Virus record (IMG/VR): IMGVR_UViG_3300032105_000042
Coordinates: 15,693 to 79,692 of that record
Length of the DNA stretch: 64,000 nt
Strand: one strand, 5' to 3'
Source of the DNA: a virus
The notes beneath the pieces are model-generated. The model made no database searches. It saw only the letters and a list, made by a program, of their open reading frames with translations, and was not told the origin of the DNA. Of the stretch, positions 12,631-16,929 are shown in pieces. Each line of letters begins with the position of its first letter. Within the stretch, counting starts at the first letter, position 1. The translations under genes and the position numbers were made by a program.

Positions 12631-12912
12631 ATGTTTGATTGGCAAAGGTTTTGTTTCTACAAAGCTATTCCCGATGGGTTTCTTACCCAGCATAAGGGAA
12701 GAACCTTCAACACCTCTTGGGATGGAGCCTGGGTTCTCGATAGCTGGAACGATTTGAACGTCCCCTACTTCACCCGTCCCGGGCGAAAGAAGCGGTTCGT
12801 CGTTCCACATCTCGAACGGCGGCTGATCTCACTAGCAAAGAAAACCGTCGTAACGGTAAAGTCAATACGAAGGAAACGCCTCCCCAAGCATCTGAGGCGA
12901 CGGCACCTCTAG
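12631..12912 (+). CDS. Small early hypothetical protein with Arg-rich tail RRKRLPKHLRRRHL
   Basis: Conserved RBS; stop overlaps HH4. Confidence 0.8.
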   Translation: MFDWQRFCFYKAIPDGFLTQHKGRTFNTSWDGAWVLDSWNDLNVPYFTRPGRKKRFVVPHLERRLISLAKKTVVTVKSIRRKRLPKHLRRRHL

Positions 12913-12977
12913 TCGAAACCGGGCTGGGTAGCCCGGTCGGTTTGATCTGACCTACCAACCCTGACGATGACAGGTCA
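12912..12977 (+). ncRNA. Type II hammerhead ribozyme HH4 (cleavage after C12938)
   Basis: GTC-GAAA-CCGGGCT/AGCCCGG-TC-GGTT..AACC-CTGACGA-T-GAC; pseudoknot TGACCT/AGGTCA. Confidence 0.82.
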
Positions 12978-12998
12978 AGACAACTATAGGAGGAGATC

Positions 12999-13268
12999 AT
13001 GTGTTACATTATCCAGACAGACATGAGTACAGGTCAATCCTCCCAGCCCCTGTTCTGGACTGGGACCGAGGTCGTCGGCATCTGCCGCTCTGGCGAGGCG
13101 AGAGTCTATAGCAGCCGCTCTCAGGCAGCGTCAGCCCTTGCAGCTATCCCCTCGAACGTCGTCCGGTTCTACGATCTACACATACGACCCGAGGGTGAGC
13201 GCTCCCGGTTGCCACAGTTGAGAGGTATCCGTGGGATGAAGGGTAATCCGGGATACGATCTCGGTTAA
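12999..13268 (+). CDS. Small early hypothetical protein
   Basis: Conserved RBS TATAGGAGGAGATCATG. Confidence 0.75.
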   Translation: MCYIIQTDMSTGQSSQPLFWTGTEVVGICRSGEARVYSSRSQAASALAAIPSNVVRFYDLHIRPEGERSRLPQLRGIRGMKGNPGYDLG

Positions 13269-13269
13269 A

Positions 13270-13335
13270 GCCGAAACGGGAGATCATACTCCCGTCATCG
13301 TGAGCCAGCTACTCACGGTCTGATGAGGCAAGCTA
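13270..13335 (+). ncRNA. Type II hammerhead ribozyme HH5 (cleavage after C13296)
   Basis: GCC-GAAA-CGGGAG/CTCCCG-TC-ATCGTGAG/CTCACGGT-CTGATGA-GGC (stem II covaries GCC/GGC); pseudoknot AGCT/AGCT. Confidence 0.92.
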
Positions 13336-13349
13336 CATAGGAGGAGATC

Positions 13350-13574
13350 ATGAAAGTTCGGGAGCTAATCAAGGAGCTGGAGTAGTTCGACGGCGACATG
13401 GACGTCTGCTTTGCCTACAACTATGGCGACCATTGGAAGACAACGGTCTCGCCGAAGGTGAATAAAGTGGACGAGTGTGGCATCCGTTACTCGGACTATC
13501 ACAACACATACCGTGTTGTGGACGAGGACGACAAGGAGTCACCCGAGGAGCACGCGGTCGTACTGTTCGGCTAG
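13350..13574 (+). pseudogene. Small phage protein gene interrupted by an in-frame TAG at codon 12
   Basis: MKVRELIKELE*FDGDMDVCFAYNYGDHWKTT...VVLFG*; strong RBS; TAG at 13383-13385, frame open on both sides. Confidence 0.7.
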
Positions 13575-13575
13575 A

Positions 13576-13648
13576 GCTGAAACGGCGGAGTAACACCTCT
13601 GCCGTCGCCCCGAGCACTGACCCTGTCGGGGCCTGATGAGGCAGGGTC
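13576..13648 (+). ncRNA. Type II hammerhead ribozyme HH6 (cleavage after C13606)
   Basis: GCT-GAAA-CGGCGGAG/CTCTGCCG-TC-GCCCCGA/TCGGGGC-CTGATGA-GGC; pseudoknot GACCCT/AGGGTC. Confidence 0.92.
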
Positions 13649-13672
13649 GCACAACCCCCATAGGAGGAGATC

Positions 13673-13885
13673 ATGAACAAAAAGCAGTTTTGGATCAACC
13701 AAGTCGCCGCACAGCGCCAGTGGATCGACGCGCACGGCGGGTGCGAAGCAGGCTATGTGGAACGCTACGGTTCAGCGTCCAATAAAAAGCACTACGGTGA
13801 CGGTGGCGAAGCCATCTGGAAGGCCGACAAGGACGAGCTTGACAAGTGCTTATCGAGTGCTCGTCAACATGGTGCCCTCATTTAA
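13673..13885 (+). CDS. Small early hypothetical protein
   Basis: Conserved RBS CATAGGAGGAGATCATG. Confidence 0.8.
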   Translation: MNKKQFWINQVAAQRQWIDAHGGCEAGYVERYGSASNKKHYGDGGEAIWKADKDELDKCLSSARQHGALI

Positions 13886-13917
13886 CATGAGATCGGCTGA
13901 TAAGAAGGAGAGTGCCA

Positions 13918-14135
13918 TGGAGCACATAACTGTAAGGGCCGAGCGAGGCTCGGCAATACTAGGTCGTCTTACCAAATTCTCCAAGGGCTGGCGGTTCTAC
14001 CCGTGGACGGAGAGCCGTCGGCCGTCAACCCACTACTGGCCGACCGCCGAGGAGGCCATCCCGCGCTGGCTCAAAAGCGCAAGTTCCGGCTGGACAAACC
14101 AAAGTCATCCTGACGCAGCCCGAAGCCCATCCTAA
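13918..14135 (+). CDS. Small early hypothetical protein
   Basis: ATG 13918 after AAGGAG: MEHITVRAERGSAILGRLTKFSKGWRFYPW. Confidence 0.6.
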
Positions 14136-14986: not shown

Positions 14987-14999
14987 ATAGGAGGAGATT

Positions 15000-15608
15000 A
15001 TGTATTATGTTACTATGGACAGCGAGGGCGACCGCATCCTGGAGGATGCAGAGATCGTGGAGTACAGGACGCACTCCAAGGCCAAGGACCATCTCCTGGA
15101 CAGCTTCTCCGAGGTAGAGGAAGGCCAGGAAATCGAGATCGTGTCAGGTCACTTCCAGAACTGCTGGAAGAGGGTCGAGCTCAACGGGATAGCAAGAGTG
15201 GACATCGATCCCTTCTGCTGGGACGAGGTCTGCATTCAGCATCCGGATAAACATCCGGGAGACAGTACATACTGGATAACGCCCGGACCGGAGGTCCTGG
15301 TGGCCAAGCTCGTTAATGTAGAAACAACGTCGTGGGAGGGTATCGTGAACCTTAACATCACCTCAACCACGGTCGGCCCGTTCGAGGACGGCTCCTTTAA
15401 GGCAGGCGTGCGCGTAGAGACGAGCGAGCAGACCTCGATCGTTTACGCCCGGCAGGGCCCGTTCCCGACCAGTGACGAGGCTCACCACGTAGCGCAGGCG
15501 TTCCTGCAGTACGTGTGCGAGCTCGTGGACAAAGCGCTCACAGAAGTAAGGTACGACAAGCTGATCGTGAGCTTGCTGCTGGACGACCCCCCGTCCGGCG
15601 GTGGCTAA
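15000..15608 (+). CDS. Early hypothetical protein (possibly two fused modules)
   Basis: Conserved RBS GATAGGAGGAGATTATG. Confidence 0.7.
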   Translation: MYYVTMDSEGDRILEDAEIVEYRTHSKAKDHLLDSFSEVEEGQEIEIVSGHFQNCWKRVELNGIARVDIDPFCWDEVCIQHPDKHPGDSTYWITPGPEVLVAKLVNVETTSWEGIVNLNITSTTVGPFEDGSFKAGVRVETSEQTSIVYARQGPFPTSDEAHHVAQAFLQYVCELVDKALTEVRYDKLIVSLLLDDPPSGGG

Positions 15609-15619
15609 CCCGGACCCTA

Positions 15620-15690
15620 GTCGAAACAGGGGAGCGCTGTCTCCCCTGTCGGAGCGGGTTGCTCTCCCGCTCCCTGACGAGACAGAGCAG
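15620..15690 (+). ncRNA. Type II hammerhead ribozyme HH8 (cleavage after C15650)
   Basis: GTC-GAAA-CAGGGGAG/CTCCCCTG-TC-GGAGCGGG/CCCGCTCC-CTGACGA-GAC; pseudoknot TTGCTCT/AGAGCAG. Confidence 0.95.
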
Positions 15691-15706
15691 ACCATAGGAG
15701 GAGATC

Positions 15707-15883
15707 ATGTCCCTACACCGTAGCACTCAAATGATTCTCGACACCGTCTCCAAACCTTACATGGACGAGGGCGATAGGAGGGCACTTGCCAATGACATCT
15801 CAACGCGCCTAGACAGTGGCGACAGCGACGAGAAGGTTGCGGCCTGGGCCGCTAAGATAGTCAAGACATTTGAGCCGACGTAA
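15707..15883 (+). CDS. Small early hypothetical protein (58 aa, not in ORF track)
   Basis: MSLHRSTQMILDTVSKPYMDEGDRRALAND...FEPT*; conserved RBS. Confidence 0.75.
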   Translation: MSLHRSTQMILDTVSKPYMDEGDRRALANDISTRLDSGDSDEKVAAWAAKIVKTFEPT

Positions 15884-15884
15884 C

Positions 15885-15928
15885 CCTGAGCGCATCAAGA
15901 GGTGCGCTCTCAGATGCGTCAGCATCGT
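15885..15928 (+). promoter_or_regulatory. Unclassified structured leader, motif B copy 2
   Basis: CTGAGCGCATC-aaga-GGTGCGCTCTCAG hairpin followed by GATGC-GTCA-GCATC, then the conserved RBS. Confidence 0.55.
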
Positions 15929-15946
15929 AAACCATAGGAGGAGATT

Positions 15947-16510
15947 ATGACATCGCAATCAACCGAGTACGCAGCGACCCCAGAGCCGTGGAAGCTGCCA
16001 CGGAACCACCCGTGGTGGTGCCCCAAGGGTGACCTGCTCCACGTCCCGCGCGCTCTCAGAAGAGCGAAGTGGACCGAGAAGCAGTGGGTGCGGCACCGCG
16101 AGGCTCAGCAGCGGAGACGAAGTGTGTCGTGGCATCGCACAGTCATCAAGACGGACGCCGCCATATTCGCGCCGGTCATCGCCCGAAAAGCCGAGAAGGA
16201 GAGGCGAGCGAAGCGGAGACTGGAGCGGCTAGAAATCAAGGCCGAGAAAGTGAAGCGTCGCCACCTGGAAACAGAGGAGGCCAATCGGGTCCTGGACTGC
16301 ATCGCCACTCGGGCGACCACCGCCCATCGGATAGCGAAGGCCCTAGACCTGGACCAGCGAATGGTTCGTCGCGCAATACGACGGCTGCTGCGAGAGGATA
16401 AGATCGAGAAGACGAGCCCAAAGGTGTACGATCTCTGCGGACGTGGGCAGGCACCCAAGCCAGTACGGAGGAAGCGTCTCCCCAAGCGTCTGCGGCGACG
16501 GCACCTCTAG
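15947..16510 (+). CDS. Basic protein with C-terminal winged HTH and tail RRKRLPKRLRRRHL
   Basis: VLDCIATRATTAHRIAKALDLDQRMVRRAIRRLLREDKIEK wHTH pattern. Confidence 0.7.
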   Translation: MTSQSTEYAATPEPWKLPRNHPWWCPKGDLLHVPRALRRAKWTEKQWVRHREAQQRRRSVSWHRTVIKTDAAIFAPVIARKAEKERRAKRRLERLEIKAEKVKRRHLETEEANRVLDCIATRATTAHRIAKALDLDQRMVRRAIRRLLREDKIEKTSPKVYDLCGRGQAPKPVRRKRLPKRLRRRHL

Positions 16511-16575
16511 TCGAAACCGGGTCAACCAACCCGGTCGGTTGGATCTGACCTACCAACCCTGACGATGACAGGTCA
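16510..16575 (+). ncRNA. Type II hammerhead ribozyme HH9 (cleavage after C16536)
   Basis: GTC-GAAA-CCGGGT/ACCCGG-TC-GGTTGG/CCAACC-CTGACGA-T-GAC; pseudoknot TGACCT/AGGTCA; near-copy of HH4. Confidence 0.85.
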
Positions 16576-16596
16576 AGACAACTATAGGAGGAGATT

Positions 16597-16929
16597 ATGA
16601 CGATCAAGAGACTGAGCCCCGAGATCCCTCTTGAGCAGGACTATGAAGGCAGGTTCGAGAACAAGCTGTGGTGCTACGCCGCCGTCATTCTTGACGTCCC
16701 GGCACATTGGAAAGATCGGTGGGGACTAGGGATAGCCGTGGCGGACAAGCCGGGCTACTTCCCGATCTCGGGCGACTACGCCCACGCCGATTCCTATGAG
16801 GTAATGATGGACCACGCCGACGACCTGAACCAGCAGCGCAGTATCACCCACGCGCAGTCGGCCATTATCATCGCTTCGACCATGGGTGGTCGTGGGGCAC
16901 CCTCACCCCACGACAGGAGGCGAGTATGA
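16597..16929 (+). CDS. Early hypothetical protein
   Basis: Conserved RBS TATAGGAGGAGATTATG. Confidence 0.75.
   Translation: MTIKRLSPEIPLEQDYEGRFENKLWCYAAVILDVPAHWKDRWGLGIAVADKPGYFPISGDYAHADSYEVMMDHADDLNQQRSITHAQSAIIIASTMGGRGAPSPHDRRRV

Follow-up and report, generated by a model that had tools for sequence, protein, structure and literature searches.

The early operon of an uncultivated phage carries two near-identical copies of a unit of 143 nucleotides (nt), each of which holds the end of a gene, a predicted self-cleaving hammerhead ribozyme of type II and the ribosome-binding site (RBS) of the gene that follows. This unit is most probably the footprint of a recombination event in this lineage, in which the 3′ end of the gene for the putative winged-helix protein P0002, together with its hammerhead and the common RBS, was copied onto the end of an unrelated gene, g3. 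The phage is represented by a 79,803-base record of IMG/VR (IMGVR_UViG_3300032105_000042) that is estimated to be 79% complete, and the stretch analysed here, referred to as the window, is the 64,000 nt between positions 15,693 and 79,692 of that record; coordinates are those of the window. A first-pass annotation had noticed a near-identical unit of gene end, ribozyme and RBS between unrelated genes and had attributed the arginine-rich tail shared by two unrelated proteins to the copying of this unit. Both points are borne out by the alignments described below, and to them can be added the direction of copying, from the P0002 family to g3. The elements concerned, with lengths in amino acids (aa), are the following.

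12859–13001, + strand: copy A of the unit, with the last 17 codons of g3, the hammerhead HH4, the RBS and the ATG of g4
16457–16599, + strand: copy B of the unit, which closes the open reading frame (ORF) 15947–16510 with the tail VRRKRLPKRLRRRHL; the next ATG is at 16597
15947–16510, + strand: P0002 (187 aa), the donor gene, with a predicted long helix, winged-helix domain and disordered basic tail
12631–12912, + strand: g3 (protein P0001, 93 aa), the recipient, with the canonical linker RBS and ATG and an acquired C-terminal extension
12911–12979, + strand: HH4, type II hammerhead, matching Rfam family RF02276 over its full length at 30.0 bits when searched alone, below threshold
16509–16577, + strand: HH9, type II hammerhead, matching RF02276 over its full length at 32.6 bits when searched alone, below threshold
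12986–13001, + strand: the RBS-start motif ATAGGAGGAGATCATG, right edge of the repeat and start of g4

The two copies (12859–13001 and 16457–16599) align without a gap and differ at 16 of 143 positions (89% identity). The within-record match between them has an E-value of 5.8e-50, exact runs of 28 and 52 nt are shared, and no further full copy exists anywhere in the 79,803-base record; copy B lies 3598 nt downstream of copy A. Each copy consists of the last 15–17 codons of an ORF, a type II hammerhead that begins at the stop codon (UAG-UCGAAAC) and ATAGGAGGAGATYATG, which includes the ATG of the next ORF. In copy A, the codons for K-S-I-RRKRLPKHLRRRHL close the ORF 12631–12912 with a TAG at 12910–12912, and the hammerhead leads to the RBS GGAGGAG at 12989–12995 and the ATG of the next ORF at 12999–13001. 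The tail peptides at the two gene ends are KSIRRKRLPKHLRRRHL and KPVRRKRLPKRLRRRHL. Similarity stops on the right exactly at the ATG and on the left at about 12859; outside the tail g3 and P0002 show no similarity (best BLASTP E = 0.2) and belong to separate families. The motif ATAGGAGGAGATCATG is carried by about ten junctions of the window and by all relatives. With seven arginines among the last 15 residues of P0002 and six among those of g3, the two tails are the most arginine-rich C-termini among the 140 ORFs of the window that are preceded by a Shine-Dalgarno (SD) sequence. It had also been remarked that the UDG-like ORF at 10676–11275 ends in RTRRRL, which is true; only RRRL is in common with the tail, in a gene outside the ribozyme operon, and this is a four-residue coincidence.

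The direction of copying was read from the relatives of the two proteins. A metagenome scan with the P0002 alignment yielded nine contigs, and all nine show the same architecture of a hammerhead followed by GGAGGAGAT(C/T)ATG. Every one of nine P0002 homologues (61–98% identity) ends in RRKRLPKRL(R/Q)RKRL or a near variant, and RRKRL is still found near the end in a clade at about 30% identity. For g3, no close homologue was found in a search of proteins of 51–163 aa, and the ESM Atlas gave no usable lead for its body. An exhaustive HMMER search did recover four remote homologues (P0014, P0015, P0016 and P0018; 64–84 aa), which align to residues 6–72 of g3 and end there, about 21 residues short of it and with no basic tail. 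The AlphaFold2 model of g3 has a per-residue confidence (pLDDT) of about 86–92 over residues 10–70 and below 60 after residue 70. Since the P0002 homologues carry the tail, whereas the g3 family ends earlier without it, the arginine-rich tail belongs by origin to the P0002 family, from which g3 received it. Copy B also aligns with the P0002 tail, hammerhead and RBS of three related contigs (L020, L021 and L022), and so stands in the orthologous place.

The AlphaFold2 model of P0002 itself has a small helix-turn-helix domain besides a long helix, and its tail is of low confidence. The best Foldseek matches are Zalpha and MarR winged helices, with a TM-score of about 0.7 normalized by target and a root-mean-square deviation of 1.1–1.4 Å over about 52 residues, at weak E-values of 0.1–0.5; helix-turn-helix and MarR matches in Pfam and PHROG were all sub-threshold (E = 0.001–0.05). 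In the clade at about 30% identity (L024:1675-1745, and also L023), the hammerhead and the gene for the P0002 homologue overlap at the 3′ end of the latter: UCGAAAGCGAGG, which encodes the final residues S-K-A-R, also provides the GAAA core together with the stem II strand and the 5′ strand of stem III, and the stop codon lies within the stem III loop.

The later history of the two copies was followed by polarizing the changes between them against L020, L021 and L022. Between 12859 and 12895, five changes are private to copy A, copy B agreeing with all three relatives, and one is private to copy B. From 12894 to the RBS, at least 20 states are common to A and B against all three relatives, including the RRRHL codons, a distinct stem I and CUGACGA. 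Because at least 20 states are shared in this way, A and B can be taken as sister copies made within this lineage. The P0002 of the window differs from its 98%-identical homologue P0005 at four residues, of which three are among the last five (P = 3.7e-5), and at the differing end residues it agrees with copy A, a sign that a tract of replacement or gene conversion covers the last six codons and the ribozyme. Divergence between A and B is uneven, with 7 of 35 positions changed before 12894 against 2 of 100 after it when the loop is excluded (P = 0.001; P = 0.07 with the loop included), in a test that is post hoc and confounded by constraint on the ribozyme, so that its fit to gene conversion is only suggestive. 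In the stem III loop, seven of eight positions differ between the copies, the closing pair being C-G in A and U-A in B, and the loop of copy B is identical to that of another hammerhead of the operon, HH3, which suggests patchwise exchange among linkers.

Both copies belong to an operon that is punctuated by such ribozymes.

11971–17905, + strand: early operon with both copies, an array of small genes with a hammerhead and then the common RBS at almost every junction

A 16-kb scan with Rfam gave five RF02276 matches above the gathering threshold of 37 bits and a sixth below it, with HH4 and HH9 unlisted; both of these align to positions 1–66 of the RF02276 model. The order of core elements in HH4 and HH9 (UCGAAAC, stem III, GUC, stem I, CUGACGA-U-GAC) is that of a type II hammerhead with a cleavable site present, and cleavage is predicted after the GUC at 12936–12938 in HH4 and at 16534–16536 in HH9. 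The pseudoknot of HH4 pairs GACCU with AGGUC. A U.C mismatch at 12943 weakens stem I of HH4; in HH9 this stem is intact (GGUUGG/CCAACC). When 12 linker ribozymes from this phage and its relatives were aligned, 89.6% of the cells at paired positions could pair, against 27–48% in slid controls, and ten pairs show double changes; for the pseudoknot between loop I and the 3′ tail, the value is 95.8%, with three of four pairs covarying. The predicted stems I–III and the pseudoknot of the linker hammerheads are supported by this covariation.

An extra nucleotide lies between A9 and G10.1 in HH1 (11971–12048), HH3 (12547–12616), HH4 and HH9 (C, U, U and U, respectively), and the ribozymes downstream of P0002 in L020, L021 and L022 share the insertion (U, A and A); ribozymes of this sub-lineage are found on both sides of g3. 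At some junctions the ribozyme is replaced by a second type of linker, made of a hairpin, CAGAYRCGTCAG... and the RBS (window 14107–14187 and 15877–15950; L020 1036–1118, 2301–2378 and 3783–3861), which is also repeated within and between genomes at 75–90% identity. Two further genes of the operon have features of their own. The gene after HH5 (13350–13574, + strand) has an in-frame TAG at codon 12 (13383–13385), and when it is read through, residues 1–30 match PHROG 5861 (E = 7e-9) and 22847 (E = 2e-7); the TAG has arisen by sequencing error or recent nonsense mutation, or else it is read through or recoded, and most operon genes also end in TAG. The last gene (17462–17818, + strand) encodes a C-terminal lysine-rich tandem repeat, AKKTTKVTKAKKTKAKK..., reminiscent of a histone H1-like tail, and its counterpart in L020 is 69% identical over the N-terminal 75 residues.

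The first-pass annotation had further proposed that the linkers of ribozyme and RBS act as homology joints at which gene cassettes are shuffled, and had named an invariant cassette order among relatives as the finding that would speak against this. The order is not invariant. The comparison involves two genes that flank the copies.

12999–13268, + strand: g4 (89 aa), the unrelated gene 3′ of copy A, with no family match
16597–16929, + strand: g12 (110 aa), the backbone gene 3′ of copy B, at 66–68% identity in L020, L021 and L022

P0002 in L020, L021 and L022 is 67–79% identical to the window protein, and a backbone of g7, g8, g9, P0002, g12, g13 and g14 is kept in L020 at 77–83% DNA identity; L021 and L022 are short and cover only the stretch from P0002 to g13, so that the full backbone is visible in L020 alone. 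Gene maps and blastn show that g1–g6 and g10 of the window are missing from L020, where different genes stand instead. In the interval between P0002 and g12, where the window has no additional gene, each relative carries a different extra cassette: that of L020 encodes 190 aa and that of L021 69 aa, and the one in L022 is about 790 nt long and contains an ORF of 126 aa. The edges of these insertions fall in the linkers. Window 16581–16603 corresponds both to L020 4488–4510 and to L020 5385–5407, which flank the 190-aa cassette; window 16509–16600 corresponds to L021 845–931 and L021 1145–1228, the two hammerheads around the 69-aa cassette; and in L022 the insertion point is exactly at the ATG of g12. 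Linkers are also found at non-orthologous places. HH2 of the window is 95% identical to the hammerhead L020_359, with different flanking genes, and L020_753, which lies behind an unrelated gene of 104 aa, is 87% identical to the hammerhead downstream of P0002 in L021, the homology beginning at the stop codon.

Because the relatives differ in their cassettes, with edges in the hammerhead, the RBS or the ATG, the linkers behave as recombination joints, and in substance the earlier proposal is upheld by the variable cassette content, by the position of the edges and by the linkers at non-orthologous places. Orthologous linkers are 92–96% identical, against 77–83% for the coding backbone. Pairs at this level are window 12290–12374 and L020:356-440, 14918–14998 and L020:3109-3195, and 17369–17460 and L020:6167-6260, and the linkers are the longest near-identical tracts available for recombination between these phages. 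A difference of another kind is seen in g9 (202 aa; 15000–15608), which in L020 corresponds to two ORFs (112 and 82 aa; 3193–3789) between which TAGGAGGGCGTCATG supplies a stop and then a fresh RBS and start codon; the gene has undergone fission, or fusion, at an internal RBS. Searches for further relatives added little. Peptide-pattern scans of IMG/VR (with P0002, P0001, the DUF2786 gene, A2 and A4) found nothing or one distant locus, L007; the DNA pattern CATAGGAGGAGATCATG gave 12 single matches in IMG/VR that are probably due to chance; a tail-coding pattern gave one chance match there, inside an unrelated ORF; blastn against GenBank phages gave no match; and a search of genome contigs with A4 found nothing.

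A mechanism for the copying can be proposed from the position of the two joints. Because the right joint falls in sequence that is common to all linkers (the 3′ half of the hammerhead and ATAGGAGGAGATYATG), it could have formed by homologous exchange. The left joint lies inside coding DNA without homology, so that it would be an illegitimate, in-frame join, one that replaced g3's own stop and through which g3 would have gained a foreign basic tail of 15–17 residues. Such a combination of a homologous right joint and an illegitimate left joint would account for the unit, and the high conservation of the linkers may make them preferred sites of crossover. Since the copying, the two copies have probably exchanged sequence by gene conversion. 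In g3 the tail would be mainly a passenger, whilst in P0002 it is likely to be a conserved nucleic-acid-binding extension of the winged helix.

Several points weigh against this account. The junction between g3 and the tail is known from a single metagenome assembly, and the left joint has no microhomology that would name a mechanism. High conservation of the linkers could come from ribozyme function alone, without recombination. The course of events may have been a duplication, a gene conversion or an import from a third phage. Finally, of the five changes between A and B that fall within the 14 codons of the tail, four are synonymous and one exchanges H and R (P = 0.04–0.05; 0.09–0.11 if the I/V codon is counted), which hints that the peptide is not a neutral passenger in g3.

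This last point bears on a reading that would add to the copy event and not replace it, namely that the basic tail is a portable nucleic-acid-binding module, similar to an arginine-rich motif (ARM), that is useful to g3, that possibly binds hammerhead RNAs or the adjacent mRNA end, and for which the chimera was fixed. This is conceivable, if doubtful. Apart from the synonymous changes, it can draw on the strong conservation of the tail in a family in which the rest of the protein diverges to 61% identity, on the position of the tail after a winged-helix domain, where it is predicted to be disordered, and on the arginine content of both tails, which places them at the top of the window's C-termini. 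ARMs are known from the N proteins of lambda and P22 and from Tat and Rev of HIV, and the tail resembles them in its short length (about 14 residues), its predicted disorder and its many arginines and lysines; it differs in that it has no N-utilisation context and is C-terminal to a winged helix. Basic tails beside winged helices commonly add non-specific affinity for DNA. Against this reading, only one transfer of the tail is known; where this hammerhead lineage has moved elsewhere, the moved segment begins at the stop codon and leaves the tail behind. Searches of proteins of 51–163 aa and 102–328 aa found no unrelated protein with words from the tail region, though they are blind to a bare 14-residue match. 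Gene conversion from copy B could moreover preserve the codons of copy A without selection on g3, and the codon data are suggestive only, as weak evidence, of selection on the tail peptide in g3. A more specific proposal, which we regard as a long shot, is that the tail is a transferable peptide that recognizes the hammerhead, or the 2′,3′-cyclic-phosphate mRNA end, encoded directly after it, such that a protein whose message ends in a ribozyme would bind, and regulate or protect, its own cleaved message or those of neighbouring genes. If this were true, copying the tail and the ribozyme together would move a matched pair of peptide and RNA to a new gene.

It is unlikely that the coding nucleotides 5′ of the ribozyme are instead conserved for reasons at the RNA level, either as an anti-SD sequence (CCUCC or UCUCC at −35) by which the downstream RBS would be hidden until the ribozyme cleaves or as part of an extended ribozyme fold. 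In centroid folds of both 147-nt units CUCCCC does pair with GGAGGAG, the codons CGT CTC CCC of copy B recur unchanged in the three relatives, with CGC for CGT in copy A, and an exact anti-RBS is present elsewhere in the operon, in the leader upstream of HH1 (a 10-mer match). The complementarity in the tail is, however, only a 5-mer that also occurs in 27% of random 70-nt windows of the operon, the other junctions show no anti-SD rule, and the extended folds are not more stable than shuffled sequences (z = −0.01 and 0.15); neither an anti-SD nor an extended RNA structure in the tail rises above background, and both were rejected. Stem II of the ribozyme stops short of the tail codons, and the tail codons are synonymously conserved (9/11 to 10/13 invariant) to about the same degree as those at the N-terminus (7/9 and 8/10). 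Any additional constraint on the nucleotides of the tail codons does not exceed that seen in the N-terminal part and was discarded as an explanation.

A metagenome assembly chimera, made at the repeated linkers, is a still poorer explanation of the fusion of g3 to the tail and is very improbable. The record is a metagenome-assembled contig, and the exact runs of 28 and 52 nt between A and B would allow an assembler to switch paths, but the left junction (about 12856–12866) has no repeat by which it could be misled. Copy A also has its private substitutions on the tail side of the junction, so that a molecule joining the body of g3 to this variant of the tail must exist, and both the reading frame and the linker architecture are intact. 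That the tail arose on g3 and then moved to P0002 is barely credible and as regards the whole tail effectively refuted, since every P0002 homologue, even a distant one, has the core RRKRLPKRL and no homologue of the g3 family does; only the last six codons are left to that reading, the last five residues of the window P0002 (RRRHL) matching g3 and not the P0002 relatives, which makes a short conversion of the extreme end from g3 to P0002 plausible.

On the preferred reading of the unit as a recombination footprint, the event offers a dated and directional example of ribozyme-RBS linkers shaping the early orphan-gene region of a phage. Between diverged relatives no DNA is better conserved than the linkers, and it is there that gains and losses of cassettes have their ends; where an exchange runs past the linker, an unrelated protein can acquire a functional peptide. 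Because any gene behind a linker would automatically be cut free and translated, the linker would serve both as an expression adaptor and as a homology patch, which suggests a second role for the clustered hammerheads of phages, long unexplained. The idea that regulatory cassettes are recombination joints, developed for the PeSLs (promoter-early stem-loops) of T4-type phages, is thereby extended to self-cleaving ribozymes. The transfer of the tail remains a small curiosity unless the peptide binds RNA.

In T4-type phages, recombination between repeated regulatory cassettes, the PeSLs, leads to the insertion, deletion and replacement of orphan early genes (Arbiol et al. 2010, PMC2839356; Comeau et al. 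2014, PMC4122927). The linkers described here are similar in being short repeated regulatory cassettes that separate the small early genes, most of them orphans, of a hyperplastic region, in that the edges of insertions, deletions and replacements between relatives fall in the cassettes (here in the hammerhead, the RBS or the ATG, as seen with L020, L021 and L022), and in that the cassette gives expression signals to any gene that lands behind it. They differ in composition, a PeSL being an early sigma-70 promoter with a stem-loop terminator and the present linker, as read from the sequence, a predicted self-cleaving type II hammerhead with an SD sequence, and in that the exchange examined here ran about 50 nt beyond the cassette, into the gene upstream, and produced a chimeric protein. 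The linkers thus work like PeSLs without being PeSLs, which are the closest mechanistic precedent. Multiple hammerheads that flank prophage or phage genes, with varying identities of the flanked genes, have been reported by Perreault et al. (2011, PMC3088659), a study that has no analysis of recombination breakpoints and no coding tail travelling with a ribozyme. The hammerheads are alike in both cases, being of type II with a pseudoknot between loop I and the 3′ tail and lying between genes of one transcript; HH4 and HH9 differ in their extra U between A9 and G10.1 and in scoring below the Rfam threshold.

The comparison with an integron without an integrase, made in the first-pass annotation, stands only as an analogy, in that a variable array of promoterless single-gene cassettes is expressed from a single promoter upstream of it, and every junction has a repeated structured element. 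Integrons have the integrase IntI, attI and attC sites and the promoter Pc. Here there is no attC-like folded site, the junction element acts at the RNA level, and the modular shuffling brought about by PeSLs is the better precedent; no integrase domain, and no tyrosine recombinase, was found among 17 scanned proteins of the operon and its flanks. General recombination between co-infecting relatives, both homologous and illegitimate, best accounts for the exchange. In the Hendrix/Hatfull model, the mosaic joints of tailed phages arise by illegitimate recombination followed by selection. The present case fits this model in having a homology-free joint near a gene end, which gives an in-frame chimera, and another joint at a gene boundary, and departs from it in that the joint at the gene boundary is a conserved ribozyme-RBS module with real homology. 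The whole event is ordinary phage mosaicism in an unusual, ribozyme-linked form.

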